Below, piece after piece: positions 208 through 19,765 of a DNA stretch of 20,000 nt. The notes beneath the pieces were generated by a model that saw nothing but the letters and a program-made list of their open reading frames with translations, searched no databases and was not told the DNA's origin. The translations under genes were made by a program, and so were the position numbers. How positions within the stretch are numbered: position 1 is the stretch's first letter; each line of letters opens with the position of its first letter. The stretch lies in the IMG/VR virus record IMGVR_UViG_3300031746_002572; one strand, 5' to 3'. The DNA comes from an uncultured virus (IMG/VR IMGVR_UViG_3300031746_002572) (lineage: Duplodnaviria; Heunggongvirae; Uroviricota; Caudoviricetes).

Positions 208-861
208 ATGACGCATCAAGAATACGCGCTTAAAAATAAAAAAAGATTGATTGATTTTTTAATCGCAAAAGATATAGAAAAAATACATTTTATAGGAATA
301 GACAGGTCTTTAACGGCGACAGGATTTGCTGTTGTGAATGCGGGAAAATGTATAAAATCATTTGAAATAGGATCAAAGGAATATGGAGATAATAGACTGT
401 ATGATATAGGTAAACAATATATTGTAAATATAATGTCTTATTCAAATAATTTTGTATGTATGGAAAATTATGCTTATGGTATTAGTAATAGCCAATCATT
501 AACCGGGTTAGGTGAACTTGGGGGAGTTTGTAAGGTTTTTTTTCGTATGAAAAATATAGATTATTTGTCTGTTGCTCCTACTTTGTTAAAGAAATATGTT
601 TCTGGGTCTGGTATATCAAGTAAAACACAAATGATGATGTTTGTGTTGAAAAAATTTAAGATAGAACCTGTTTCGGATAATACCGCTGACGCTATTGGGT
701 TAGCTTATTTAATTTATAATACTATTAGATATGCCAAAGGCAATAAAAACTATACGCAAAAAGAGATCGAATGTTTTGATTCATTTTTATCATGTGAACC
801 AAAGAAGAAAAATATAAAGAAAAGATTGTTGCAAAATGAATTAGACTTGATAGATGGCTAG
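208..861 (+). CDS. ruvC: RuvC-like Holliday junction resolvase (phage type)
   Basis: RuvC motif order is present: FIGIDRSLTATG (first catalytic Asp), CMENY (Glu), GELGG, PTLLKKYVSGSG, DNTADAIGLA (DxxD). Confidence 0.85.
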   Translation: MTHQEYALKNKKRLIDFLIAKDIEKIHFIGIDRSLTATGFAVVNAGKCIKSFEIGSKEYGDNRLYDIGKQYIVNIMSYSNNFVCMENYAYGISNSQSLTGLGELGGVCKVFFRMKNIDYLSVAPTLLKKYVSGSGISSKTQMMMFVLKKFKIEPVSDNTADAIGLAYLIYNTIRYAKGNKNYTQKEIECFDSFLSCEPKKKNIKKRLLQNELDLIDG

Positions 862-1417
862 AAGAAAAATGATAAAATCACTATGGAATGTCGATCCTTG
901 TGATTTAACAGAGAAAAATATAGTTTATTTATTACAACATCCAATAGTAAGCGCGGTTATTAATAAAACCGTAAAAAGTTTATATTTTCGTTATAAAGAT
1001 TATTTTAAAGTAGATGAATTAAAATGCGCGGCTCGTGAAGGGGCATGGAAAGCTATTAAAACGCATGATCCTGGCCGTGGTGAACTTATACAACACATGA
1101 GTTATGTATGCCGCGCTTATGTGAACAGATATATAGAGACTGGGTTAAGACGTAATAAATACGAACAGAATTTTGGCGATAACGTATATTATGTTTATAA
1201 TAATAGCGATGAAATCAGCGATGAAATTTTAAATTCGATTACTGTAAATAAGATTTTAGATCAAATGAAAAATAAAGACAGGAATTTATTGGAACGGCAT
1301 TATTTAATGAATTATAAAATAAAGGATTCAATGACGATAAATAGGTTAAAATATAAATTATATAAAAAGAGATTGGAAAAGGCACTTCATCATGCAAGAG
1401 AAATTTCAGATAAATAA
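854..1417 (+). CDS. sigma70-family-like RNA polymerase sigma factor (divergent)
   Basis: Region 2-like DELKCAAREGAWKAIKTHDPGRG...SYVCRAYV (cf. DLxQxGxxGLxxAxxxFDPxRG). Region 4-like ILDQMKNKDRNLLERHY. Overlaps ruvC by 8 nt. Confidence 0.7.
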   Translation: MARRKMIKSLWNVDPCDLTEKNIVYLLQHPIVSAVINKTVKSLYFRYKDYFKVDELKCAAREGAWKAIKTHDPGRGELIQHMSYVCRAYVNRYIETGLRRNKYEQNFGDNVYYVYNNSDEISDEILNSITVNKILDQMKNKDRNLLERHYLMNYKIKDSMTINRLKYKLYKKRLEKALHHAREISDK

Positions 1418-4089: not shown

Positions 4090-4161
4090 TGCCAACGTAT
4101 GATAAAGTAAGAAGTTGCGCTTCGCAATTTAGCCTTGCGCCTTACTTTGCTCTGTTGGTTG
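4090..4161 (-). mobile_element. attC-like recombination hairpin
   Basis: Minus strand: CAACCAAC-5 nt-AAAGTAAG...CTTACTTT-7 nt-GTTGGCA, with an inner AAGTTGCG/CGCAATTT stem and GCTTCGC apex (plus strand). It overlaps the stop of the upstream ORF. Confidence 0.6.
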
Positions 4162-4455
4162 ATGGCCTGCCGTTCCGATATTCGCGGGCGCATGTCCTTG
4201 TAAAAATTCCTCAATTGCTTCACGACATTGATTGCATACACTTCTTGCCCTTTCATTGTTCGCGCAATCAAGGGCATTCCTTAATAATTCTCTTCCTCTT
4301 CTGCCTGATAATCTTTCATGCTCAAATACTTTTGTTGCTTCTTCGGCTTCTAAATTTGCAGCATCCCAAGCTAAAGACGCAACCGTTAACCTATGGGCTA
4401 CTTCTCTCTCAGGACATTCAAAAACCAAAGAGTCTAAATATTCTTTTTTTGTCAT
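4129..4455 (-). CDS. hypothetical protein carried in a cassette-like unit
   Basis: The ORF track gives 4129..4500; the ATG at 4455 (MTKKEYLDSL) has an AGGAG SD and is the likelier start. Contains CxxC and is visibly more GC-rich than the surroundings. Confidence 0.65.
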   Translation of the reverse strand: MTKKEYLDSLVFECPEREVAHRLTVASLAWDAANLEAEEATKVFEHERLSGRRGRELLRNALDCANNERARSVCNQCREAIEEFLQGHAPANIGTAGHQPTEQSKAQG

Positions 4456-4504
4456 TCTTCGATTCTCCTGCGCCCGCTCCGTAATTAGGCAGGCTTTCAA
4501 CCAA

Positions 4505-4750
4505 CTAGTGATATGTTGTCATTCCCTTATTTAACACTTTATCAACAAACGGTTTAAATTTTTCAGATAATTTAAAACCATCTCGAATCAATTGATTAAT
4601 TACAGCATATCTAATGTATTTTGATCTTGTTCTACATTTAATTTTACTTGCCATAATAAGTGCTTTATCTGCCAATTCAGGTTCAAGATAAATTTTGTAG
4701 TTTTTTCTTAATGAATTCGTATCCATATATCTATAAATACAATTATTCAA
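4505..4750 (-). CDS. ribbon-helix-helix (CopG-like) DNA-binding protein
   Basis: YKIYLEPELADKALIMASKIKCRTRSKYIRYAV: alternating beta strand, helix, then the RS-x-hIRxA second helix. Confidence 0.65.
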   Translation of the reverse strand: MNNCIYRYMDTNSLRKNYKIYLEPELADKALIMASKIKCRTRSKYIRYAVINQLIRDGFKLSEKFKPFVDKVLNKGMTTYH

Positions 4751-4769
4751 AACCTTATTGCAAAAAAGA

Positions 4770-5798
4770 TTATAAAAAATTTAATATAAATTCGGATCGT
4801 TTAATATAATTTTCATTAGAAATAAAATCATTTAAAGTATCTTTATCAATACTATCATAAGTTTCTATATATTTTTCTAAATTTCTTTTAATATTATCTT
4901 TAGGCAATAATATAGGAAATTGGCAATTAGAAAAATAAATATTCATATAATCCATGATTGTTGTTCTTTCAATATTACATAACGGTATTGCTCCGCAGCC
5001 TAAAGCGTTAAAAAATCTGGGATTCGGGCTAACTGCCGAATTAACTATTTGTCTGCATTTAATACCACTCATAATAACATTAACTTTGATACCTGTTTCA
5101 TTTACTAATCTTATTGGATTTATAACAAATTTAGACATCGAATATGATTCTAATTCTTTATGATGAGGAATTAATTTAGGTTCTTGATTAAACATACTTA
5201 TGTCATAGGATAGCGAACCTTGATCTTGCATTTCAAATAGCGGCATTATACTACCCGCTATATATTTTTTACACTGAATTTCATTTATTTGTTTTAAATA
5301 GTCCATACGATTTTTATAAAAAGTACAGATATAACATAAATCTATATTTCTTTCTTCATTTTTTTTGTATAGATACAAATGGTCAAAAGCCAATGGTAAA
5401 TAAATAAAACCAAGTTTTGAAAACGATTCAGCTACGATTTTTTCATTTGTAAATTTTTTATCAAATAAATGTTGGATACTTAAAATAGTTTCAGTGGAAT
5501 AAGGATCATCTGTATTAATACTAAAAAATCTTATACCTTGTTGTTTTTTTATAAGCATTAAATATGTAGCCGTAATAGTAGTAAGATAACTGGGTTGAAT
5601 AAAAATTATGATTTTATAATTACCTGTACTGATTTTATAATATAAATTATGATTTAATATTTCAATAGAAGATGAGGAATCATAATAGTATTCAAAATCA
5701 ATGCCCAAAACTTCAAATGCTTTTTTATAAGCTTCTGCTATTAAAGTAATGCCTATATGAATTGAATTAGATACGAGAAGAATTTTATTATTTTCCAT
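4770..5798 (-). CDS. CgeB-family (GT-B type) glycosyltransferase-like protein
   Basis: TDDPY, YLPLAFD, YSMSKFVIN, NPRFFNALGCGA and C-terminal NYIKRSEFIL match the CgeB/DUF3880 pattern. Confidence 0.75.
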   Translation of the reverse strand: MENNKILLVSNSIHIGITLIAEAYKKAFEVLGIDFEYYYDSSSSIEILNHNLYYKISTGNYKIIIFIQPSYLTTITATYLMLIKKQQGIRFFSINTDDPYSTETILSIQHLFDKKFTNEKIVAESFSKLGFIYLPLAFDHLYLYKKNEERNIDLCYICTFYKNRMDYLKQINEIQCKKYIAGSIMPLFEMQDQGSLSYDISMFNQEPKLIPHHKELESYSMSKFVINPIRLVNETGIKVNVIMSGIKCRQIVNSAVSPNPRFFNALGCGAIPLCNIERTTIMDYMNIYFSNCQFPILLPKDNIKRNLEKYIETYDSIDKDTLNDFISNENYIKRSEFILNFL

Positions 5799-6226: not shown

Positions 6227-6445
6227 TTAGTGTTTATTAAAGCGCGGCTTTTTTGATTCCTTTTTTTCCCATGAACTAAAAATTGATTGCTTTCTTTTAT
6301 CTTCATAATCAAACAGGCATTCTTGGCATTTTAAATCAGAACAACAATTTTGCATTATCTTGGTATTTTCGCAACATGACATCATGCGGCCAAGAATTCC
6401 AATACCTTTAAAATTTGGTACGAAAAGTCCTTTGTATTTTTTCAT
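6227..6445 (-). CDS. small Cys-rich hypothetical protein
   Basis: 72 aa with CC...CC...CQECLF; AGGA SD. Confidence 0.65.
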   Translation of the reverse strand: MKKYKGLFVPNFKGIGILGRMMSCCENTKIMQNCCSDLKCQECLFDYEDKRKQSIFSSWEKKESKKPRFNKH

Positions 6446-6552
6446 TTTTTTATTTTCCTATTTCACAGGGTGAACAGGTAATCGGCAGAGTAAATTTTAT
6501 TCATTAATAATTATTCTGCCTATTCACGATTTTTAGTTATTTCTTTCCATCT

Positions 6553-7182
6553 TTAGATTTTTTCGTAATATATGCCTATCGAAATTGCAAATTGATATGC
6601 CCCGTCTAGAATTAAAACACATCTTTTTTTTGAACTCTTTGCAATAGCTTGAGCACAGAATTCTTTTAAGTCATTTATATCGTCGCCATTTATACAATGA
6701 CCATCGGTATTGTCGAATTCAACGTTACCTACAAAATTTAATATCTTTTTATCATAAGTACCGGCTACTGGAATTAAATGAGGGGCTTTTCTAATCATAT
6801 CGAAACTGATTTTATCTATTTCTTTTTTATGAATAAAATTTGAATCTTCGGATAAATAAATATCTAATGCACAATTAAGGCAAAATTGTTCCCCATTTAC
6901 TATAGTATAATAATCTTCCCATGTATAATTTTCTATATGTAATTTTCCACAGTTATTACAATAGAAATAACCTTCACATACAATACCGGATGAATTATGG
7001 TGTCCTTCACATAAAGCTATTTCACCTTTTGGATAATTAGAAAATACATCATAATATTCTTGCCATATCAAAGCTTTTTTATTGCAATAATCACAACTAT
7101 TTTTTTCATGTATATTTTGTTTGTTTTTATAATTCTTTTCAGCCACTGTATTAAGTCTGCTAATGTCTGGTAGTGCCCACAT
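6553..7182 (-). CDS. zinc-binding hypothetical protein
   Basis: 209 aa with CDYC, CEGH, CNNC and CLNC; AAGGAG SD. Confidence 0.75.
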   Translation of the reverse strand: MWALPDISRLNTVAEKNYKNKQNIHEKNSCDYCNKKALIWQEYYDVFSNYPKGEIALCEGHHNSSGIVCEGYFYCNNCGKLHIENYTWEDYYTIVNGEQFCLNCALDIYLSEDSNFIHKKEIDKISFDMIRKAPHLIPVAGTYDKKILNFVGNVEFDNTDGHCINGDDINDLKEFCAQAIAKSSKKRCVLILDGAYQFAISIGIYYEKI

Positions 7183-7230
7183 ATTTAAACTCCTTTATTT
7201 AATTGTTTTATACTAATAAATACAAATAAA

Positions 7231-7596
7231 TTAATTCTTATTGCAAATATTAATTAAATATAATTCTAAATTATCTAATTGTTTCCATTGATCAGGATGA
7301 TTCATAGATTGCCAGCATGACCAGCATATATTTCCTAATGATGTTTGCGTGAATATCGAAGCGGAATATTCATTATAACAGATAGGACACGAAATGTTTT
7401 TAAATAAACTTATGATAAATAGTTCTTCTTCTATATTCCCAATATTTATACTGGCTTCGTGGATAGGTTTAAACATACCTTGATTTTTTTTATATAAAAT
7501 TATTTTTGTGTTTGTCGGCGTTATTATAGGCAAATAATAAAAATTTTCAATGGTGTTGCCGTAAATAATTAATTCTTTAAATGATAATTTATTCAT
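7231..7596 (-). CDS. zinc-finger hypothetical protein
   Basis: 121 aa with CPIC and CWSC. Confidence 0.65.
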   Translation of the reverse strand: MNKLSFKELIIYGNTIENFYYLPIITPTNTKIILYKKNQGMFKPIHEASINIGNIEEELFIISLFKNISCPICYNEYSASIFTQTSLGNICWSCWQSMNHPDQWKQLDNLELYLINICNKN

Positions 7597-7601
7597 AGTT
7601 A

Positions 7602-8078
7602 TTAATGTTTAACTTGTGAACAAATGACTATTAAATCCAATAGAATTAAAAAAGATATAAGAAATAGCCAACCAAACGAAATCTTTGGTTTTTTAATGTT
7701 TTTGTCTTCTATTTTTATTATAGCTTGTTCGCATATTGTTTTAATCAGTTCTTTCGCTTCCATACGTTCAGATATATTAATAATAAAATCTAAATTACAG
7801 TTAATTAAACCATTGTAGTAAAAAAAATCATATTTACTTATGTTTAATGCTCTTGTGCTGATATAAATTTTTCCTTCGGCATTTATGATTTTATTGTTTT
7901 CGTCTAACTTTAAATAAGTTATTTTTACTTGATCTAATTTTATTCTTTCATCATTAAATTTATTATTTTTTATTAGAATAAAATTATTTGATTCATTATT
8001 GCAAATATAGAAATCATTATCTTGTTTTTCTAACTTTTTTAATGCTTGTTTGTATTCATTTATTTCTTTGATTTTCAT
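7602..8078 (-). CDS. hypothetical protein with a C-terminal transmembrane anchor
   Basis: 158 aa ending FGWLFLISFLILLDLIVIC. Confidence 0.65.
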   Translation of the reverse strand: MKIKEINEYKQALKKLEKQDNDFYICNNESNNFILIKNNKFNDERIKLDQVKITYLKLDENNKIINAEGKIYISTRALNISKYDFFYYNGLINCNLDFIINISERMEAKELIKTICEQAIIKIEDKNIKKPKISFGWLFLISFLILLDLIVICSQVKH

Positions 8079-8102
8079 AATTAATTACTTTCAAATTTAT
8101 TG

Positions 8103-8252
8103 TTAATGAAATAAAAATATATGTATATATTGTGTTATTTTTAAAATAAATTTATCAATTTTCACAAATAGAAATATTAAAAGTAATACAGGTAAAGCTA
8201 AAGTTATTTGAATTGTTATTATTTTTATTTCTTCTATTATTTTTTTATCCAT
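8103..8252 (-). CDS. 49-aa membrane peptide
   Basis: MDKKIIEEIKIITIQITLALPVLLLIFLFVK...FH*; fills the gap, but the SD is weak. Confidence 0.4.
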   Translation of the reverse strand: MDKKIIEEIKIITIQITLALPVLLLIFLFVKIDKFILKITQYIHIFLFH

Positions 8253-8282
8253 TTTTTCTTTCTTTGTATTTATTATTCCTAT

Positions 8283-8618
8283 CTAAAATATAAGATGATA
8301 CCGCTCGTCTTTTAATATACTATAAAAACGCCCTATGAACTGAAATCTATCTGCATGATCTTTAAGATATGTTTTAAGCTCAACCTCATCCTTGAAAAAT
8401 ACATGGGTGAAGTTACACCCTCTCTGAATTTTATCGTAGACTTCTTTTGGGATACCCAGTATACACTTCATAAAGGAGGATGTTCTGCCTGCGTCTTGGT
8501 TGTAACAGACATGACAGTTATGACAAGAGGGTGTGCTCACCACAACGTTCTCATTATCTTGAACCACGAGTTCCATAACGCTTCCATGTTTACATCTTAT
8601 TGTACCGCCAACACTCAT
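8283..8618 (-). CDS. hypothetical protein
   Basis: 111 aa with CHNCHVC; GGGGG upstream of the ATG; co-oriented. Confidence 0.6.
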   Translation of the reverse strand: MSVGGTIRCKHGSVMELVVQDNENVVVSTPSCHNCHVCYNQDAGRTSSFMKCILGIPKEVYDKIQRGCNFTHVFFKDEVELKTYLKDHADRFQFIGRFYSILKDERYHLIF

Positions 8619-8650
8619 TTAAACCCCCAATACTTTTGTAATTTTACTTA

Positions 8651-8917
8651 TTATTTTTTTATCTTTTGCTTCCTTATATCTTCTAAAATTTGTTTCCTTT
8701 CCTTCTCTACTTTATTCAGGTCAATCTTGAAATATTCAGCAAGAATCTGTTCTATGGCCTTATGTATCGGAAACAATAACGCCTCACCCTCCTCATCATC
8801 GCTATATTCTGCAATTATATACTTGGTTTCATTCTGCAACCAATCAAGAAACGCTCCGATTTTTTGAGACTCCTCAGAAACCTTTTCTAGCTTTTCACAT
8901 TCAGGATATTTATTCAT
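8651..8917 (-). CDS. phage hypothetical protein
   Basis: 88 aa; YPECEKL...SQKIGAFLDWL...LAEYFKIDL resembles a recurrent uncharacterised phage family (recognised from memory). AAGGA SD. Confidence 0.75.
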   Translation of the reverse strand: MNKYPECEKLEKVSEESQKIGAFLDWLQNETKYIIAEYSDDEEGEALLFPIHKAIEQILAEYFKIDLNKVEKERKQILEDIRKQKIKK

Positions 8918-8948
8918 TAATTATTCCTTTCAAAATTTATTAAAATGA

Positions 8949-9218
8949 TTAATTATTTTTACCATAATGAGATTTATAAATATCAATTATCTTTTCTTTT
9001 AGATGTTGAATATTATCCATTTTCATTGATTCTATGTTTTCGCTTGAGTGATCGCAAGCTATTATATTCAGTTCTTTTATTTTATCTTTAGATAAAAATG
9101 GCATGATTTCATCTTCACCTATTTTTACGCTAATTACATCAGCCATTCCATCATCTTCTATATATCCAACCTTAATTGGTAATTCAAGATTTATTTCAAA
9201 TTCTTTATTTCTAAACAT
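8949..9218 (-). CDS. hypothetical protein
   Basis: 89 aa, acidic; GGAGGT SD. Confidence 0.7.
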   Translation of the reverse strand: MFRNKEFEINLELPIKVGYIEDDGMADVISVKIGEDEIMPFLSKDKIKELNIIACDHSSENIESMKMDNIQHLKEKIIDIYKSHYGKNN

Positions 9219-9257
9219 AAATTACCTCCATAAATTATTAGATTGTGTAAATATATT

Positions 9258-9527
9258 TTAACATTTCATCTCATTTTTTAACGCTTTTTGGCAATCCTTT
9301 GGTAAGTCTTTAAATTTAATACATTTACCAAGATGCTTTCCACGTTGCCCGCAAGTATGCTGATAAACTCCTTTATTAGGGCTTAACGGGGATTCATTCA
9401 TGGCGATCATAGTATATAATTTTACCCCATTGCCAACAATACGGTCAACTTCATTCAATACGACTGTATATCTATCAATAGCAAAATCTGGATTATCATG
9501 GATGCTTAAAATCTTACCTGTATTCAT
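9258..9527 (-). CDS. phage early-region hypothetical protein
   Basis: DN...DRYTVV...HLGKCIKFKDLPKDCQK resembles a recurrent uncharacterised phage family (recognised from memory). AGGAG SD. Confidence 0.75.
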   Translation of the reverse strand: MNTGKILSIHDNPDFAIDRYTVVLNEVDRIVGNGVKLYTMIAMNESPLSPNKGVYQHTCGQRGKHLGKCIKFKDLPKDCQKALKNEMKC

Positions 9528-9691
9528 ACTTTCTCCTGTAAAAGTTTAATTAATTCTTCCAAAATAAACTGGGCCTTATACGGCATCTCGGATTCTGTTC
9601 TCATAGCTTTGTCATTAATAATCAAAATAACATACCTTGAAATTTCCTTAACTGCATTAATTAATTCAGGATACCTTTCTTCTTTTTTCAC
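9524..9691 (-). CDS. 55-aa hypothetical protein
   Basis: GTG start after AAGGGGG; MKKEERYPELINAVKE...PYKAQFILEELIKLLQEKV*; ATGA overlap with the next gene. Confidence 0.65.
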   Translation of the reverse strand: MKKEERYPELINAVKEISRYVILIINDKAMRTESEMPYKAQFILEELIKLLQEKV

Positions 9692-9702
9692 GATAATCCC
9701 CC

Positions 9703-9954
9703 TTACATAATATGCTTTTGAAAAAACGACTTTGGATTCGTCTCTTGCACTGACTCGATCTTAACTGCAATAGCCATCGAACAACTAAAATAGTATGTAT
9801 TACTATTTTTACTAACGCAATCTTGATACCATGTACGGGCTATTTTCTTAGCCCTTTTCTTGGCAGATATAATATCTTTCTCTTTCACTACTACCCGATG
9901 AGTGTATTCCTGTTCGCCATTACGTTCTTCTAACACAATTTCAAAGTATTTCAT
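9703..9954 (-). CDS. hypothetical protein
   Basis: 83 aa; AAGGAG SD. Confidence 0.7.
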   Translation of the reverse strand: MKYFEIVLEERNGEQEYTHRVVVKEKDIISAKKRAKKIARTWYQDCVSKNSNTYYFSCSMAIAVKIESVQETNPKSFFQKHIM

Positions 9955-10081
9955 TTTATCTCCTTTATTTAAGTGTTTAATTTACCGCTTTCCAGCCACT
10001 AGGATTGAACTTACCAATTTTTTAATGGTATTACCTTATCTGGTATATAAATAATAAGGAATTTATTCATTTTATTTTCTC

Positions 10082-10384
10082 CTAAAACCTAAAGGTTTTC
10101 AATGATTTCCGATATATCAAATAAAATTGTTTTGTATGTCCATATTTAAAACCATGAACAAATAAATAATAATGAACGATTTCGTGTATAAACTTCTTAT
10201 ATAATAACTTATTATTTTTGCTTAATTCTTTTGTCATAATTATTTTAGGTTTTCGATATGGATAAAATAATCCATAGGCATTTTTTAATATAGTCTTTGA
10301 AAAATAAATACATATATTTTTAAGCTTATTACCAAAACAATATTTATTTATTTGATCAAAGATTATTTTTAATTCTTTGTTCAT
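10082..10384 (-). CDS. SprT-like zinc metallopeptidase
   Basis: FDQINKYCFGNKL N-terminal motif, HEIVH (HExxH), and downstream HTKQF. Confidence 0.8.
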   Translation of the reverse strand: MNKELKIIFDQINKYCFGNKLKNICIYFSKTILKNAYGLFYPYRKPKIIMTKELSKNNKLLYKKFIHEIVHYYLFVHGFKYGHTKQFYLIYRKSLKTFRF

Positions 10385-10560
10385 TTAATTGCATCCAAGA
10401 TAACATCTAATGGTTCATTATCTTTTTTAATTATTTTTGATATTACGTTATCGGATTCAAAAGAAAGACAATGGTTTAAAACGTATTCGAGATACTCTTT
10501 ATCTGTTAAATTCCCGTTTACCCATTGTTTTGTCCTGTATTTTAAATCTCTTGTATCCAT
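10381..10560 (-). CDS. 59-aa hypothetical protein
   Basis: MDTRDLKYRTKQWVNG...ILDAIK*; AAGGAG SD; ATGA overlap with the SprT-like gene. Confidence 0.65.
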   Translation of the reverse strand: MDTRDLKYRTKQWVNGNLTDKEYLEYVLNHCLSFESDNVISKIIKKDNEPLDVILDAIK

Positions 10561-10672
10561 TTTTCTTCTCCTTATAATAATATCTACTTAAAAATTTTAT
10601 ATTAACCAACAACGTTTATAAACAGGTAATTGTTTTAATGTCACTCTTTATTTATTATACGGTGTTTTCTTT

Positions 10673-11758
10673 TTACAAGCTGCAAGTCGTACCGAAAGGC
10701 GCAATAGAATTATTATTGCATACCCAAAGTACCGAATATTCCGGTTGTTCGCTTGGAAATTTTCCTTGTAAATCAGTCATATAGATCAAACATTTTGGCG
10801 GGTGTTCATTGCAGTATTCAAATACGGGGTTAAAATCAGTACCACCACCGCCAATAGTTTCTAATTTTATATCGTCGCCGGTTTTAAATGTTTGTATATT
10901 TTGAATTTTAGCATCGCAATATATTACAGTTAATTCCGTACTGTATTGATTTAATATTCCATTTAATTCGGAAGAAAATTCATTTAATTGTTTTTTGTTT
11001 ATACTTCCACTTGTGTCTATTGCTACGGTAATATTTTCTAAATTGTCGCTTTGTATTCCTGGTAAAATCACACCTAAATGTGCATAGCGTTTATTTGGTT
11101 TTTGCCACGAAAAATCATTTTTGGCGTTGTGTTCTATGAATTGCCTTAATATTTCAAACCAAGGTAATTTAGGATTAATGATTTCATCGGCCAATCTTTT
11201 CAAACTATTTGGTAATTTTCCTTGTGCTAACGCTGTTTGCGCGGCCTGTTTTAATGCTACTTTCCATTGTCCTTGTATTTCCTCTTTATTCCCTACTGCA
11301 TCCTGGCATTGCCCTATATTCCAATTTCCTTTTCTTTTATTATTGCCTTGCCCTTTATCATCTTCATCTGGTAATAAATTATAAATTTCATCAGCACTTT
11401 TATTTTCGTATGACTTTTCATATAGACAATCTTTAGGTAATTCAAATTTTTCATTTATTAAAACAGAATTAACGCAAAAATCTCCTGCCATATTCCATTT
11501 TTTATTATCACGTTCACCACGCCTTGTAATATGGCATAAAGCACAATGTAACACTTCGTGGACTAAAACGCCTTTCAATTCACCATAGGAAAGTTTATCA
11601 ATAAAGTCCGGTTCATATATAATGCTTTCTCCATTTGTTGCCATTGTTCCTATACCTTTTTGTTCAATCATAGGTAGCTTTAAAATAAGCGAACCAAAAA
11701 AGGGGTTTTCAATAACTAAACTAATTCTAGCTTTTTGTATTTTTGTTTGTATGTCCAT
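10673..11758 (-). CDS. DUF2201-type metallopeptidase + vWA-like domain protein
   Basis: TMATNG, HEVLH, WNMAGD in the N-terminal domain; MIDAS-like AIDTSGS, GGGGTDF and YMTD in the C-terminal domain. Confidence 0.85.
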   Translation of the reverse strand: MDIQTKIQKARISLVIENPFFGSLILKLPMIEQKGIGTMATNGESIIYEPDFIDKLSYGELKGVLVHEVLHCALCHITRRGERDNKKWNMAGDFCVNSVLINEKFELPKDCLYEKSYENKSADEIYNLLPDEDDKGQGNNKRKGNWNIGQCQDAVGNKEEIQGQWKVALKQAAQTALAQGKLPNSLKRLADEIINPKLPWFEILRQFIEHNAKNDFSWQKPNKRYAHLGVILPGIQSDNLENITVAIDTSGSINKKQLNEFSSELNGILNQYSTELTVIYCDAKIQNIQTFKTGDDIKLETIGGGGTDFNPVFEYCNEHPPKCLIYMTDLQGKFPSEQPEYSVLWVCNNNSIAPFGTTCSL

Positions 11759-11788
11759 AATTCATGTTCCCAAATTCAATGTTCCCAA

Positions 11789-12628
11789 TTATCCAATATA
11801 TCCTTTCATTTTTTCTAATATTACGCTTGCATTTTGCGCCGTATCGTCTCTTATGTCTTTATTATTACGTAATGTTTCAGGATCAATAGCTAAGTTATTT
11901 AAAGCGTCTTTTGCTAATTGTTCAAGTTTTACATCGCCGGTTATATTTAATTTAGGCAAAAGTTTGCATAAATCTTTTAAATTCTCAATTAAACTATCTC
12001 TAAAAATAGAATCTTTTATTGATAATTTTTCTTTTATATGATTAATTGCGGTATATAAACGGTTCCATAGGTCTTTATTAGCATTTTCAATAGCTATTTT
12101 TGATTTTTCTTCTATACTTTGTTTAATTATAGCTGTTTCATAATCACTTAATTGTACTCTAAAATCATTTGAATCCGGCAATGGCATAATATCAGTATTA
12201 AAAGAGAATAAATTAATTACATGATTTTTTTCTGGATAATCGCTGGCGTTAAACATACTATTTAATTTAATTTTACTTTCTTCAACAAATGATTCATAAT
12301 TATCTAAAAATTTAGCTACAACGACTTCAAATTTATCTTTAAAAGATTTTATTTTCGTTGTATATTCAAAGAAATTGCTTGCCGGTAATATTCGCGCCCC
12401 TTCATCCATCCAAGGGAGAGTGTTTTCATAATGAAATACCCTAGCCTGGTTTACAATTTTTTGTATGTTTTCAAGGTTTTCTTTTGCGATTAATTGTTTA
12501 TTATAACGCCCTGCGTTGTTATCGGCGTTATGTAAATCATTAGTTTCTTTTGTTATTTTTTTGTCATATTTTCTGGCGCACCATTGAGAAATAGATAGAT
12601 TTATTAACATTGCTTTTTCATTCAACAT
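11789..12628 (-). CDS. DUF3150-like protein
   Basis: 279 aa, helical. SQWCARKYD, TLPWMDEGARILP, FNASDYP and FRDSLIENL resemble proteins found between phage AAA and vWA genes. Confidence 0.6.
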   Translation of the reverse strand: MLNEKAMLINLSISQWCARKYDKKITKETNDLHNADNNAGRYNKQLIAKENLENIQKIVNQARVFHYENTLPWMDEGARILPASNFFEYTTKIKSFKDKFEVVVAKFLDNYESFVEESKIKLNSMFNASDYPEKNHVINLFSFNTDIMPLPDSNDFRVQLSDYETAIIKQSIEEKSKIAIENANKDLWNRLYTAINHIKEKLSIKDSIFRDSLIENLKDLCKLLPKLNITGDVKLEQLAKDALNNLAIDPETLRNNKDIRDDTAQNASVILEKMKGYIG

Positions 12629-12926
12629 TTTGTCCCCCTAGTTTTTTAAATATTAATTCGGCAATTTCCTCTTTTGTATAATTGATAAATCCCATTTTTT
12701 TTAATACGTTAATTTTATTTATTAATTCAGATTCATATTTTAACATTTCGAATCTATGTTTATATGTTAGACAATGCTTAAACAAACTCCATGGATAATT
12801 TCTAGATGGTGCGCGTGTAGTGCAACATTTATATGATTGGCTTGGATACCATCTTTTGCCATTATCACATTTACCACTGGCTTTAAATGTATTAAGTAAC
12901 GGCTTTAATTCATTTATTAAATTCAT
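12618..12926 (-). CDS. Cys/His-containing phage hypothetical protein
   Basis: GKCDNGKRWYP...CC...RAPSRNYPWSLFKHC; overlaps both neighbours. Confidence 0.7.
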   Translation of the reverse strand: MNLINELKPLLNTFKASGKCDNGKRWYPSQSYKCCTTRAPSRNYPWSLFKHCLTYKHRFEMLKYESELINKINVLKKMGFINYTKEEIAELIFKKLGGQNVE

Positions 12927-13918
12927 ATTAATACTTCCTTATGATCAGAGGCCCACATAATAAATGTTTTTGTGCTGTTTATTTGGGGACATTTTTTAAT
13001 ACATTCCTTAACTAATAGAACATTAAATTCAATTTTATCTTTTGGAAATCTATTTGCATATATCATTATCCTGTCAAAATTACTTGTGCTGGCGATTGAA
13101 GACAAGGCTCCTATAATAGCATATAAACTAGCGATCTTTTCGGGTAATCTTGCGGTGTCTGGATTTAAAAGGATTTCATCACGACTAGGTAATTCATTAT
13201 AAACTTGTAAAAAACTTATTAATTCTACCGCAGCACCTTCACCTATGAAACCGGTAAATACATCTAGTTCAGCTTGTTTTGTGTTTAAATACCATTGCGC
13301 ACACATAGATATAGTTCTAGGTGTGCATGTATTTTCCATGCCATTTGCAGGTTTCCAATCGCTCAATAAATTCGGCCTAAATCTGGCAAAAGCTATAATT
13401 TCATGCGTTATATTATTATGTAAAGCCCAATCAGTCCAAGATTCAATATCGAATTCAACATTAATTATTAAACATCTATTTTTTAAGGGTTCTAAAATTG
13501 AATGCACACTAGCCCTGTCTTGTGCTCTGTTTGTAGCCATTATAAACCGTACATTATCGCTTACTTTGTGTTCTCCAATTTGCCTTGCTAGTATTATCTG
13601 CATGATTGCAGATTGAGTTAAGGGTACGGCTTGGCCTAGATCGTCAAAAAAGCATATAGTAGGCTTGTCAGCGTTAATTAAGCGGTTTAAATCACCTATT
13701 GGAAGGAATACGGCAGTATTGTTAATTATTGCCGGTAATCCTTTATAATCCGTAGGATCAGCAATAACAGGATGAGACAAAATTATATCATAATCACAAA
13801 ATTTAGCTAATTGTGCAACAATATCACTTTTGCCTATTCCCGGTTGTCCTGTAATTAATACAGGAACATTATTTTTAACTGCAATTTTCAAGTTTTGAAA
13901 TAATTTTTTGCTTGTCAT
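12923..13918 (-). CDS. MoxR-like AAA+ ATPase
   Basis: Walker A GQPGIGKS, Walker B CFFDD, MATNR sensor, LKNR arginine finger, TPRT. Confidence 0.88.
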   Translation of the reverse strand: MTSKKLFQNLKIAVKNNVPVLITGQPGIGKSDIVAQLAKFCDYDIILSHPVIADPTDYKGLPAIINNTAVFLPIGDLNRLINADKPTICFFDDLGQAVPLTQSAIMQIILARQIGEHKVSDNVRFIMATNRAQDRASVHSILEPLKNRCLIINVEFDIESWTDWALHNNITHEIIAFARFRPNLLSDWKPANGMENTCTPRTISMCAQWYLNTKQAELDVFTGFIGEGAAVELISFLQVYNELPSRDEILLNPDTARLPEKIASLYAIIGALSSIASTSNFDRIMIYANRFPKDKIEFNVLLVKECIKKCPQINSTKTFIMWASDHKEVLI

Positions 13919-14378: not shown

Positions 14379-14777
14379 CTATTCTTCCACTATAATATTT
14401 AATGCAGAAACCAATGGTGTTATTTGTGTTTTTTTTATTTTTGTGCCGTAAAGATCGGCTTTATAAAGATTGGCTCCACGGAGATTGGCTCCACGGAGAT
14501 CGGCTTCACGGAGATCGGCTCCATAAAGATTGGCTCCACAAAGATCGGCTCCACGGAGATCGGCTTCACGAAGATCGGCTCCATAAAGATTGGCTCCACA
14601 AAGATCGGCTCCACAAAGATCGGCTCCACGGAGATCGGTTTCACGAAGATTGGCTTCACAGAGATCGGCTTCATAAAGATTGGCTTCATAAAGATTGGCT
14701 CCACAAAGATTGGCTTTATATGTTGTTTCAATCTCTTTTAAAATCTTACCTGTAATTTTATGTTTAATTTGTACCAT
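14379..14777 (-). CDS. pentapeptide repeat protein, copy 1 (18 repeats)
   Basis: 21-aa leader + 18 x A(N/D)L(C/Y/R)(G/E/K) + 21-aa tail. Start reassigned to the ATG at 14777 after AAGGAGCACAA. Confidence 0.9.
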
Positions 14778-14845
14778 TTGTGCTCCTTTTTGGTTAATGT
14801 ATTTATTAATAAATACAATAAAATTATTTCTTATTGCCAATTTAT

Positions 14846-15124: not shown

Positions 15125-15508
15125 TTATTCTTCCACTATAATATTTAATGCAGAAACCAATGTTGTTATTTGTGTTTTTTTTATTTTTATGCCGTAAAGA
15201 TTGGCTTTATAAAGATCGGCTCCACAAAGATCGGCTCCACAAAGATCGGCTCCACAAAGATCGGCTCCACAAAGATTGGCTCCACAAAGATCGGCTACAC
15301 GGAGATCGGCTTCACGAAGATCGGCTCCATAAAGATTGGCTCCACAAAGATCGGCTTCACGGAGATCGGCCTTATAAAGATTGGCTTCACGGAGATCGGC
15401 TCCACAAAGATTGGCTTTATAAAGATTGGCTCCACAAAGATTGGCTTTATATGTTGTTTCAATCTCTTTTAAAATCTTACCTGTAATTTTATGTTTAATT
15501 TGTACCAT
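15125..15508 (-). CDS. pentapeptide repeat protein, copy 2 (17 repeats)
   Basis: Same 21-aa leader as copy 1, 17 repeats, and a tail differing at 2 residues. Start reassigned to the ATG at 15508. Confidence 0.9.
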   Translation of the reverse strand: MVQIKHKITGKILKEIETTYKANLCGANLYKANLCGADLREANLYKADLREADLCGANLYGADLREADLRVADLCGANLCGADLCGADLCGADLCGADLYKANLYGIKIKKTQITTLVSALNIIVEE

Positions 15509-15524
15509 TTGTGCTCCTTTTTGG

Positions 15525-16130
15525 TTAATGTATTTCTCTGTCAATCAATTCCTTTAAAACACCACCACTATTGATATTTTCTCCTTTCTTTTTAAAAGTG
15601 TCTTTAATCTCTTTTTCTATAATTTTTAAACTTTTATTTGTATAACCACCTATTTTTTTTATTTGTTCTCTGATGGTACGGCAACGAGTGAATTTCGAAT
15701 AATTACCTGATTTTCTTTTTCTTTTCGGTTCGTAGCAATAACATTCCCGCAAATAATCAACAGCATTAGAGCTTAATCTTTTTTCCAGTCGTTCAATGTC
15801 TATTTTTTCAATGAGATTATATTCATTTTCAACGGAATTTTCATTTATTTCTAAAAATTCCGTTGATTTTATGTTATTAAACCTGTTCAAAATATTATTT
15901 AACTCGTTGTTAATTGATCGGATTAAATAATCATTATAATTTGCCATATATGATAAGGAACATAATTTAACCCGTAGAGAGTTTTTTATCTCATCATATT
16001 CCGGCAGTAAAAAAATTTTACGTTGAGCAGTGATCATATCTATAATCCATTGTTTTGATTTTAGAAAATTAGTCGTTAATTGTCTATTTTCTATTTTAGG
16101 AATTTTAGGAATTGAAACAATATTAAGCAT
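15525..16130 (-). CDS. possible divergent sigma-factor-like protein
   Basis: YNDYLIRSINNELNNILNR resembles sigma region 2; EKIDIERLEKRLSSNAVDYL resembles the lead-in to region 4. AGGAG SD. Similarity is weak. Confidence 0.4.
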   Translation of the reverse strand: MLNIVSIPKIPKIENRQLTTNFLKSKQWIIDMITAQRKIFLLPEYDEIKNSLRVKLCSLSYMANYNDYLIRSINNELNNILNRFNNIKSTEFLEINENSVENEYNLIEKIDIERLEKRLSSNAVDYLRECYCYEPKRKRKSGNYSKFTRCRTIREQIKKIGGYTNKSLKIIEKEIKDTFKKKGENINSGGVLKELIDREIH

Positions 16131-17361: not shown

Positions 17362-17411
17362 TTTTTCTCCCTTGCCCTTGCGGGCGGTTTTAGTTTGTCA
17401 ACTAATTGGTT

Positions 17412-17546
17412 TTACCTTTTTGTAACTTCATCTTCGTAATTTTTTAATCGTTTTAAATCCTGTCTAACACAGGAAAAAAAGTAATCAATTGATTTTTTAT
17501 ATTGTTCGTCGATAATCCTAAAATTATTATTTCTGTTTTCTTCCAT
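17412..17546 (-). CDS. 44-aa hypothetical protein, probable first gene of the leftward unit
   Basis: MEENRNNNFRIIDEQY...EVTKR*; AGGAG SD. Confidence 0.5.
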   Translation of the reverse strand: MEENRNNNFRIIDEQYKKSIDYFFSCVRQDLKRLKNYEDEVTKR

Positions 17547-17633
17547 TTTCTTTTCTCCTGTTATTTTTTCCATTTTCTTTCCTCCTTATCTTGTGAATTG
17601 TTTTAGGACACTATTTTTATTTTCTCTATTTCT

Positions 17634-17642
17634 ATAATACCA
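17634..17642 (-). promoter_or_regulatory. candidate extended -10 promoter for the leftward gene run
   Basis: TGgTATTAT on the minus strand ~50 nt upstream of an AAGGAGG SD. No good -35 at 17 bp. Confidence 0.35.
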
Positions 17643-18289
17643 ATACATTGGTGCTATATCTGCAAGTGCATTATCATAGCCATGTATTTGTAGGTATGTC
17701 ATACTATCAGTAGTTTGTTTTTCGATAATCCCTAAACTATTTAAGATATTTTTTATTTTTTCCATACATATAAAATACATTTTGCTATAATTTGTTTTTG
17801 TATGACGCTATACCATATATGGTGGTTTTACATTTTTAAACTCTACCATATATGGTATAAAAAATGAATCATACTATATATGGTAGAAATAAATAAAAAT
17901 AAATACCATATATAGTATAAATGTTATTTTTAAAAAAGGTTCTATTTGTATTTTGTTTAAAATCAATGTGTTATATATTATTATATAAAATAAATAAATG
18001 ATAAAATATCATTTCCTTGTAAGTCATTATCAAATAACAAGATAAAAATACATGATAAAATAAAGAATAAAAACAAATAAATAATAAAATTCTACCATAT
18101 ATAGTATATCTCAAATAAAAATAAATACCATATATTGTATGATATAAGATTTCTACCATATATAGTATAGCCACAATATATAGGATACCATATATAGTAG
18201 AAAAATAATATTTCACCTTGAATAAAAATAAATACTATTGCATATAGCCCCAGTGTATTAGCACTATATCTGCAAGTGCATTATTATAG
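17640..18289. repeat. direct repeat pair 17654-17679 / 18264-18289 (25/26 identical), extendable to 40 bp
   Basis: CTATATCTGCAAGTGCATTAT(C/T)ATAG occurs twice, 610 bp apart. The preceding 14 bp differ only by transitions. Confidence 0.9.
17811..18199. promoter_or_regulatory. array of eight palindromic TAC(C/T)ATATAT(A/G/T)GT(A/G) boxes, NrdR-box-like
   Basis: Boxes start at 17811, 17844, 17872, 17904 and 18093, 18126, 18154, 18186, plus a degenerate copy at 18172. They fit the NrdR consensus acaCwAtATaTwGtgt at all upper-case positions. The repeat itself is certain; the NrdR assignment is inferred. Confidence 0.7.
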
Positions 18290-18487
18290 TGTAGACCATA
18301 TAGACGGCTGGGTGGCAAGGAGAGGATAGAGAGGATGAGTTACCCACCCCCCACTTTATTTTTATGTCAGTTTTTTAGGCGTTGACAGTTCATTGACAAA
18401 AAAATTTTTACATCTATTTTTTTATATAACCGTATGATTGACAAAAATATATTTGCAATAAGGTTTTGGATAATTGTATTTATAGGT

Positions 18488-18724
18488 ATGACGCATGAAA
18501 GATATATGGAATTAAAGCTTATATTTGGTTCGAGGGTATATGAGAATTATATTCAAATTGTTAAAGTTCTGGTAAAGAATGGTGTTAGCAGAGAAGAAGC
18601 CCATAATTATCAGCGTTATGATATGAAAGTTAAATTATTTACTTCTATTTTTGAAGGTGATAATAAATATAAAGACAGAGCGGGTTATAAAGAATTTACT
18701 AAAACCATTGGAGTAGAACCATGA
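18488..18724 (+). CDS. hypothetical protein
   Basis: The track ORF is 18434..18724; the internal ATG at 18488 (MTHERYMEL) is a plausible start. ATGA overlap with the next ORF. Confidence 0.55.
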   Translation: MTHERYMELKLIFGSRVYENYIQIVKVLVKNGVSREEAHNYQRYDMKVKLFTSIFEGDNKYKDRAGYKEFTKTIGVEP

Positions 18725-18976: not shown

Positions 18977-19765
18977 ATGGGGCGTTATAAATTAACACCT
19001 GCTGAAAATATTATTAGAAATCAGCCTTATTACGATTTATATATGAATGGTCTTAAAATGAAAGATATAGCATCGAGATTTAATATGACCAGACAGAATA
19101 TATCGTTGAAAATCAGAAAATATTATAAAATTATGGGTTTATTGAATAAAACCAGTGTTACCAGAGCTAGGTGTAAGATATGCGGGTTATACTACGAATT
19201 CAATTATAATAAACGCGAATTGAATAAAAAAGAACGTATTATAAGGACCATTAAAATCAAATCTAAATTTCATTATGTTTGTGATATGTGTAAAAAATCG
19301 GATGTTTATAAATGCACGAATTGTAGTAAAACAGGTGAACTCTCTTTATTTTCGAAAAGTAATTATAATAGAATATTTAAAACTCATCTGGGCCTTTGTC
19401 TTATGTGTGCATCTGAAAGACATTTGAAATGGATAAATAAAAATGAAGTGAATAAGAACAAACATTTACTTAGATGCGAAAAATGGAGAAAAAGCGATAA
19501 AGGCCGGATGTGGTTTAATAATCATATAAAAAAAATAAGAATACGGCAAAAAGCCGATGGTATATGTTATTATTGCGGTAAAAATAAAGCCGAAGTGAAT
19601 AGAGCGTATTGTCCTGATTGTCTTGAAAAAAACAAAATAAGATATAAAAAGAGAACAAAAGTATATAAAATCAATGGTTTATGCGTGAGGTGTGGAAAAA
19701 CTTCCAGACCGGATAAATATACGTGTCAAAATTGCGAGGATAAAAGAAAAAGAAAAATAAAATGA
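18977..19765 (+). CDS. HTH + multiple zinc-ribbon DNA-binding protein
   Basis: GLKMKDIASRFNMTRQNIS helix-turn-helix, eight CxxC pairs, very basic; AGGAG SD. Confidence 0.75.
   Translation: MGRYKLTPAENIIRNQPYYDLYMNGLKMKDIASRFNMTRQNISLKIRKYYKIMGLLNKTSVTRARCKICGLYYEFNYNKRELNKKERIIRTIKIKSKFHYVCDMCKKSDVYKCTNCSKTGELSLFSKSNYNRIFKTHLGLCLMCASERHLKWINKNEVNKNKHLLRCEKWRKSDKGRMWFNNHIKKIRIRQKADGICYYCGKNKAEVNRAYCPDCLEKNKIRYKKRTKVYKINGLCVRCGKTSRPDKYTCQNCEDKRKRKIK

Follow-up and report, generated by a model that had tools for sequence, protein, structure and literature searches.

The closest known counterparts of the locus reported here are the NrdR operators of bacterial ribonucleotide reductase (RNR) promoters, including those of E. 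coli nrdAB, nrdHIEF and nrdDG, S. coelicolor nrdAB and nrdRJ, and L. monocytogenes nrdAB (PMC13584703, PMC12051234, PMC9110341). In the parts of these sources on which we draw, an NrdR box has conserved positions C4, A6, A8, T9, T11 and G13 and at least 63% AT between C4 and G13 (PMC13584703), and a pair of boxes is bound when its linker measures 14-17 or 24-27 bp, with good binding at 16-17 bp and poor binding at 12 bp (PMC12051234, Table 5). To bind a box pair, NrdR is described as needing dATP together with either ATP or ADP, and as kinking the DNA by about 90 degrees at each box (PMC9110341, PMC12176259). The protein is present in 77% of bacterial genomes, and NrdR proteins also bind heterologous boxes (PMC13584703, with Table 1). 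In P. aeruginosa lacking NrdR the RNR genes rise about 4-5-fold, and a target outside RNR promoters, topA, is activated by the protein (PMC4409342). Within the portions of the literature covered, the known targets are RNR genes and little else.

In this study, we analysed the window, a 20,000-nucleotide stretch that forms the final 20 kb of a linear 73,224-bp virus record (completeness rating 40%) derived from a sediment metagenome. Its control region holds eight boxes which most likely constitute a real operator array for host NrdR, and which we tentatively read, with rather less than even confidence, as a switch that responds to dNTP status and sits in the main divergent control region of the phage.

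The boxes and their identity as predicted NrdR operators

The earlier note had described eight 14-bp palindromic boxes in two clusters, and every element of that description was recovered: the boxes start at 17811, 17844, 17872 and 17904, and at 18093, 18126, 18154 and 18186; spacing is 33/28/32 bp in each cluster, with 189 bp between clusters; the offset of 282 bp is exact for every box; and spacers differ at that offset (17 of 45 positions identical versus 17.8 expected), while boxes are identical at 53 of 64. One box is a perfect palindrome and seven have one mismatch. Across the contig these eight are the sole sites at one mismatch or fewer (16 strand matches versus 0.05 expected, a number reached in 0 of 200 shuffles), and four of the five strict pairs at 30-33 bp lie within the array (shuffle mean 0.023, maximum 1 in 300 shuffles). 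As to the proposal that geometry itself is conserved, the spacing triple is identical in the two clusters, but this is mostly a product of the spacing that NrdR requires. The chance that a pair of such quartets has the same triple is about 0.01-0.03 (post hoc), and we regard the identical geometry as suggestive rather than striking. Origin of the array as a single 282-bp duplication was rejected, as the spacers show no homology. A duplication of operator 2 into operator 3 looked plausible by self-BLAST, but the linker similarity is not significant (p 0.16).

By sequence, the boxes form four NrdR-type operators, two per side (Table 1). All eight carry the six conserved positions in the 16-bp frame, their AT content from C4 to G13 is 75-88%, and the pair linkers of 17, 16, 17 and 16 bp fit the 14-17 bp rule, which the 12-bp gaps, such as that between operators 1 and 2, fail. 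In tests on a box richer in GC, affinity fell 5-10-fold when both boxes had C5 together with G12 (PMC13584703); operator 1 has this combination and may bind more weakly.

We searched bacterial and archaeal genomes for pairs of the window's motif, leaving the spacing free between 24 and 44 bp, and obtained at least 120 matching loci. Among the 120 matches listed, spacing was 29-33 bp in 103, 40-43 bp in 14, 36-37 bp in 3 and 28 bp in none. Flanks were available for 80 of these loci (40 short loci were left out, and 5 of the 80 had no scannable ORF), and at 42 of the 80, among the matches listed, the pair precedes an RNR catalytic gene (36), a gene for an ATP-cone protein (5) or nrdR (1). In the same listed set, the gene behind the pair encodes a glutaredoxin at one locus, an activase-like protein at another and a deoxynucleoside kinase at a third; a few loci adjoin terminase, lysin, holin or integrase genes. 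NrdR is encoded in all 20 hand-picked motif-bearing genomes (7 with RNR-type neighbours, 13 without), versus a base rate of 77%. Half of the array's eight 16-mers recur letter for letter before RNR-type cellular genes, in a set selected by the search pattern, and the variable box positions (1, 5, 12, 15 and 16) include positions that NrdR tolerates.

The proposed NrdR-box identity is therefore well supported by the published binding rules, by the cellular RNR-promoter motif and by the phase control in phages given below, and host NrdR is likely, with high confidence, to bind the array. The flanking ORFs are not RNR genes, and the array does not lie upstream of an RNR operon; RNR adjacency and promoter overlap were both tested and both are absent, so the boxes are not members of an RNR regulon. 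The description of four pairs in a divergent region with no nrd gene is true for the available 40% of the genome, and the search for nrdR, ATP-cone and nrd genes beyond the window found none in the 73-kb contig, in which we looked for two RNR families, the ATP-cone and the NrdR zinc ribbon. The statement that operators normally occur as one pair per promoter proved too strong, since Listeria nrdAB has two pairs (PMC12051234, in the part drawn on), as does a cellular nrdD locus (L186).

At 17701-17716 we also observed a degenerate box (C4, A6, T11, G13) with, 33 bp off, a box-like stretch one base short (17734-17749); the two may be the remains of a fifth operator next to the leftward promoter.

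Anatomy and setting of the control region

With an ORF cut-off of 85 aa, the array falls in the contig's biggest non-coding gap (17362-18433), which marks a switch in gene direction between a 15-kb minus-strand block and plus-strand genes. A separate assembly from run X1, which may represent the source sample itself, crosses the array unbroken; run X2 yielded short pieces only, of which, among the matches listed, one covers the right repeat and none the boxes.

Table 1. Coordinates of observed and predicted features in the control region, in window positions
Feature	Position	Strand	Description
First leftward ORF	17412..17573	-	clear ribosome-binding site; opens the 15-kb block, mostly small minus-strand genes
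Left flanking repeat	17633..17679	+	26-bp quasi-palindrome plus 21 bp identical to right copy
Candidate leftward sigma70-type promoter	17673..17702	-	10/12; about 110 bp from box 1; -10 within left repeat
Operator 1 (NrdR-type)	17810..17858		16-bp boxes at 17810 and 17843, linker 17 bp
Operator 2 (NrdR-type)	17871..17918		boxes at 17871 and 17903, linker 16 bp
AT-rich centre	17919..18091		173 bp, 13% GC; in the contig's second least stable 170-bp window
IHF consensus match	17961..17973	+	weak, being 1 of 10 in contig
Perfect palindrome	17996..18014		8-bp arms around a 3-bp loop; its centre, 18005.0, coincides exactly with that of the eight boxes
Operator 3 (NrdR-type)	18092..18140		boxes at 18092 and 18125, linker 17 bp
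Operator 4 (NrdR-type)	18153..18200		boxes at 18153 and 18185, linker 16 bp
Ninth box	18171..18186		within operator 4 linker; without partner at an allowed distance
Right flanking repeat	18243..18289	+	47 bp; 610 bp from left copy
Candidate rightward sigma70-type promoter	18393..18420	+	10/12; about 190 bp from box 8
First rightward ORF	18434..18724	+	start probably 18488; no family
Bipartite promoter-like motif, phage-specific	18452..18484	+	fixed spacing; 1 of 9 high-scoring copies in contig
262-aa protein ORF	18977..19765	+	weak N-terminal helix-turn-helix signal, Cys-rich repeats; not NrdR

The array is mirror-symmetric to within 1 bp about position 18005, and box 4 lies 18.0 helical turns from box 5. 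By shuffling, the central palindrome has a p of 0.002-0.016 depending on tolerance, in a test that was post hoc. The 47-bp flanking repeat occurs in the contig in these two copies only. The candidate promoters all point outwards, about 110-250 bp from the array. No box is overlapped by a sigma70-type site of 10/12 or better or by a copy of the phage promoter motif; the only overlapping sites score 9/12 and are at background level. The sigma70-type scan returned 20 sites versus 14.0 +/- 3.5 expected, and its individual hits are weak.

Further copies of the bipartite motif lie in the window at 4764, 7247, 10335 and 14840 (minus strand; the control-region copy is on the plus strand) and in the contig at 1438, 4945, 16618 and 24571 (plus strand). 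Most are just 5' of genes, and the copy at 10335 is inside an ORF. The motif is a candidate target of the protein encoded at window 854-1417, which looks sigma-like by eye and has no family match.

As to where replication might begin, contig 4685-4945, which precedes a phage-type promoter, is a gap made up almost entirely of A and T and is the contig's least stable region, which makes it a candidate rival origin. We discarded GC skew as origin evidence, because the skew minimum and switch coincide with the switch in gene direction and are confounded by it. Thirteen matches to the DnaA-box consensus occur in the contig, none within the control region, and no iterons are evident near the helicase genes.

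The contig encodes a replication and repair set comprising a DnaE-type polymerase, a DnaB helicase, a loader-like ATPase, a primase, RecA, an SbcCD-like pair and RuvC; the closest cultured matches of the polymerase and the ATPase are about 30% identical. There is no match to terminase (terL), portal or capsid proteins in the contig with 15 queries from other phage loci, and no initiator was recognised among the scanned proteins of this 40%-complete genome. The integrase search covered the tyrosine family PF00589, which is absent from the contig. The 262-aa protein has no homologue beyond its own record, and protein searches either recovered just the query's own record or gave no match. Three proteins searched in viral contigs, and DNA searched against cultured phages, revealed no relatives. 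A search with the flanking repeat gave five matches, judged chance and mostly within unrelated coding regions, and Rfam gave a single match, also judged chance.

Elsewhere in the genome, contig 37-53 kb carries a large sugar-modification cluster (NeuB, cytidylyltransferase, glycosyltransferases, epimerase, radical SAM). In the window, consecutive minus-strand genes at 10673-13918 encode vWA/metallopeptidase, DUF3150 and MoxR-like ATPase proteins, and two paralogous pentapeptide-repeat-like ORFs (14379-14840 and 15125-15544, minus strand) are 88% alike in DNA. At contig 24623-28087 (L128 5623-9087) a repeat of about 110 bp occurs seven times, 500-600 bp apart, bracketing small minus-strand ORFs. 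The repeat ends resemble integron attC sites and suggest that this phage, in which no tyrosine integrase was seen, carries an array of gene cassettes. Two more repeat families, one of about 100 bp and one of about 55 bp, occur repeatedly between ORFs that look like cassettes, on both contig strands (contig 6377-13204; window 4093-4193 and about 4450-4505).

Box arrays in other phages

A viral census with a loose four-box pattern found in-phase arrays, with pairs at 31-33 bp, at 43 viral loci, and no array in the off-phase control at 36-38 bp. Together with 4 loci from other scans these made 47 loci in 22 sequence clusters, which we treat as lineages. Array-like patterns can also arise from 32-bp tandem repeats that have nothing to do with NrdR (L252, L255, L256, L272), and cluster L272, which resembles such a repeat, was retained in the counts. 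Gaps between pairs in phage arrays are mostly 28-33 bp, and one locus (L273) has eight boxes with 32/28/33 among its spacings. The most extreme array seen is that of genome G029 (L318 2885-4583), in which 35 boxes forming 15 pairs lie within 1.7 kb, in two clusters with interleaved pairs, 5' of terL.

The NrdR zinc ribbon is encoded in 0 of the 45 array-carrier records. RNR is encoded in 6 of the 45, and in one of the four that are at least 90% complete, among which two RNR families were searched; an RNR gene adjoins the array at L291 only. Within 4-kb flanks, terL was found in 11 of 22 clusters (two matches being weak), with the array 5' of terL in 9, in a scan that covered the first 250-350 residues of selected ORFs at loci of which many end short. 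This association has a p of 0.001-0.11 under assumed background rates of 19-35%, and may reflect merely where non-coding DNA lies. By lineage, the genes flanking arrays are divergent in 10 of 22, tandem in 9, convergent in 1 and undetermined in 2. A strong sigma70-type promoter (at least 10/12) overlaps or abuts a pair at 4 of 26 phage loci, representing 3 lineages. At L298 the promoter scores 12/12 and has a box between its -35 and -10 elements, with terL 2.7 kb downstream on the same strand. The promoter-box layout of L253 and L123 is similar, and at L126, by inspection, boxes likewise sit directly on the promoter of a packaging or capsid operon. Arrays lie within 1 kb of contig ends at 14 of 43 loci versus 7.4 expected (KS p 0.06), a count that includes related records.

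Four cultured phages, HTVC027P, HTVC023P, DSL-LC04 and MinM2, have no pair anywhere, and their terL proteins are 46-70% identical to that of the largest cluster. Arrays thus appear dispensable in the largest lineage. The three complete gut phages each carry 2-4 dispersed exact pairs, encode their own NrdD and have no nrdR; two of them were examined for strict pairs 5' of the phage's nrdD, and neither has one there. A metagenome scan for quartets returned 7 loci, of which three are copies of one gut mobile element, one is phage-like and the remaining three are seemingly 32-bp tandem repeats in non-phage DNA.

The initial viral scan, with at least 120 loci, was dominated by one gut phage group. 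Large gut phages (150-185 kb; L001-L120, G001-G003) carry single NrdR-type pairs right behind stop codons. A short second inverted repeat follows the pair, and the junctions vary in gene content between relatives; at L016 two copies of the pair surround an 880-bp insert.

Possible roles and comparison with known systems

We propose, as the tentative reading named at the outset, that the state of the dNTP pool would be read by the four operators as follows. When dATP is plentiful, up to four NrdR tetramers would fold the 390-bp stretch between the outward promoters, and the folded array would hold down one or both gene blocks. Rather than cover a promoter, NrdR would have to repress at a distance, through DNA bending, looping or a roadblock. 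As phage DNA synthesis drains dATP, NrdR would be released and the gene block freed. Most plausibly it is the rightward arm that would be controlled, leading to the unseen part of the genome with packaging and structural genes, a destination we infer because no terL was seen in the contig. Partial titration of NrdR would be a side effect.

Several observations favour such a switch. The array lies in the largest non-coding gap, where gene direction flips; arrays in other lineages are often found between divergent genes and within 4 kb of terL (10 and 11 of 22 lineages, respectively); in some phages (L298, L126) the promoters of packaging or capsid operons themselves carry boxes; and NrdR can act beyond RNR promoters, as at P. 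aeruginosa topA (PMC4409342, as far as that source was covered). In addition, release upon dATP depletion would tie late events to ongoing replication. A classical operator is disfavoured here because no promoter of 10/12 or better overlaps the boxes. Counting against the switch are the promoter overlap in only 4 of 26 phage loci, the lack of pairs in the four cultured relatives of the largest lineage, and the occurrence of NrdR in 77% rather than all of bacterial genomes, so that the host may lack it.

A DNA decoy is a possible though doubtful alternative, in which the operators would bind host NrdR and exert no control in cis, so that multiplying phage genomes would titrate NrdR and raise dNTP synthesis. 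This would suit four operators that overlap no promoter, in 73 kb that encode a polymerase, helicase and primase and no RNR, and RNR genes rise about 4-5-fold upon NrdR loss in P. aeruginosa (PMC4409342, in part). Other arrays exceed the needs of repression (the 15 pairs of G029, the eight boxes of L273), arrays are patchy among relatives, and three of the four near-complete carriers lack both RNR families searched. However, RNR-bearing phages also carry pairs or arrays (all three complete gut phages and 6 of 45 array records), and the two gut phages noted above have no strict pair 5' of their own nrdD. A decoy needs no mirror symmetry, central palindrome or unique flanking repeats; draining of dATP would probably free NrdR anyway; and the other 60% of the genome may encode RNR. 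We found no figure for NrdR copies per cell in the literature.

Somewhat less probable, and in our view unlikely, is an origin or packaging gate, with NrdR as a DNA-bending host factor: two tetramers per arm would shape the AT-rich centre for unwinding or cutting in a dATP-dependent manner. It would account for the symmetry about 18005, the exact palindrome there, the 13% GC centre with its IHF-like site, the 18.0 turns between boxes 4 and 5 and the two unique flanking repeats, and the proximity of terL in 11 of 22 lineages and of contig ends at 14 of 43 loci is in keeping with it. Yet the symmetry test was post hoc, the GC-skew minimum tracks gene direction and is not independent, a more AT-rich gap exists at contig 4685-4945, and the contig yielded no initiator, integrase or terminase. 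An essential site ought not to be absent from cultured relatives, as it is in another lineage, and the contig-end count includes related records, with a KS p of 0.06. The switch, decoy and gate roles can coexist.

The main alternative of the earlier note was a phage-encoded binder. Such a binder might be a repressor, an initiator or an NrdR homologue in the unseen genome, and the likeness to host operators would then be incidental or inherited. This reading keeps a small share of probability, and we rate it as improbable. A helix-turn-helix, Cys-rich protein is encoded 780 bp to the right, and the box quartets beside AT-rich DNA match the plan of the lambda origin, with its quartets of palindromic iterons beside AT-rich DNA. 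A gene labelled NrdR occurs in some viral genomes (PMC5894146, in part), and the 32-bp tandem repeats of L252, L255, L256 and L272 show that unrelated sequence can mimic arrays. Set against this, the variable positions include NrdR-tolerated ones, 4 of 8 16-mers recur before cellular RNR-type genes, pair spacing obeys the NrdR phase rule, the array spacers are not tandem copies, and no NrdR zinc ribbon or ATP-cone is encoded in the contig and no NrdR zinc ribbon in the 45 carriers. An attP site was rejected, PF00589 being absent from the contig.

Phage NrdR arrays are apparently widespread and unpublished. We found no paper on them in the literature searched, which included few subscription journals; in the parts covered, PMC3019208, PMC5894146 and PMC10294663 name NrdR merely as a gene. 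New here are the census with its phase control, the association with terminase genes and the symmetric layout of eight boxes, and the present array is among the most elaborate cases. Arrays in about 20 phage lineages, in helical phase and without a phage nrdR, imply that phages would routinely read or drain the host dNTP sensor. A broader reading, which is possible and which we hold with considerable doubt, is that NrdR has been recruited by many unrelated phages as an architectural factor gated by nucleotides, such that host dATP would time the switch between replication and late expression or packaging, with arrays placed at the junction of early genes and packaging module and, here, arranged symmetrically around a palindromic, easily melted centre. 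If true, this would be a simple coupling of late events to ongoing DNA replication; alternatively, arrays would offer reductase-less phages a protein-free route to more dNTPs.

The array resembles the NrdR operators of bacterial RNR promoters in its 16-bp partial palindromes, six conserved positions, pairs about three turns apart and unconserved linkers. It differs from them in having four pairs, mirror symmetry, no adjoining or contig RNR gene and no overlap with a clear promoter. IHF bends DNA at the cos and att sites of lambda. Like those sites and iteron origins, the array has protein-binding arms, a predicted DNA-bending factor and an AT-rich, palindromic centre, and its repeats adjoin the AT-rich region, a trait of iteron origins. 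Unlike the lambda sites, it comes with no terminase, integrase or initiator identified in the contig, and its bending factor would be nucleotide-gated.

Among host-regulator sites on phage DNA, the Spo0A boxes of Bacillus phages phi29 and Nf are comparable, in that host state represses phage transcription and, in phi29, also the initiation of replication (PMC2731898, in part). Their signal is sporulation rather than dATP, and their sites were footprinted whereas those of the array are predicted (PMC2731898, in part). In phage T5, the protein is DnaA and the boxes are conserved across 25 T5-like phages (10.1101/866236, in part), whereas the search for relatives of the present phage found none to compare. 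The T5 left terminal repeat, with its eight DnaA boxes, nonetheless shares with our locus the form of an ordered eight-site array for a host protein in an untranslated phage region, its function being read from sequence in both (10.1101/866236, in part).
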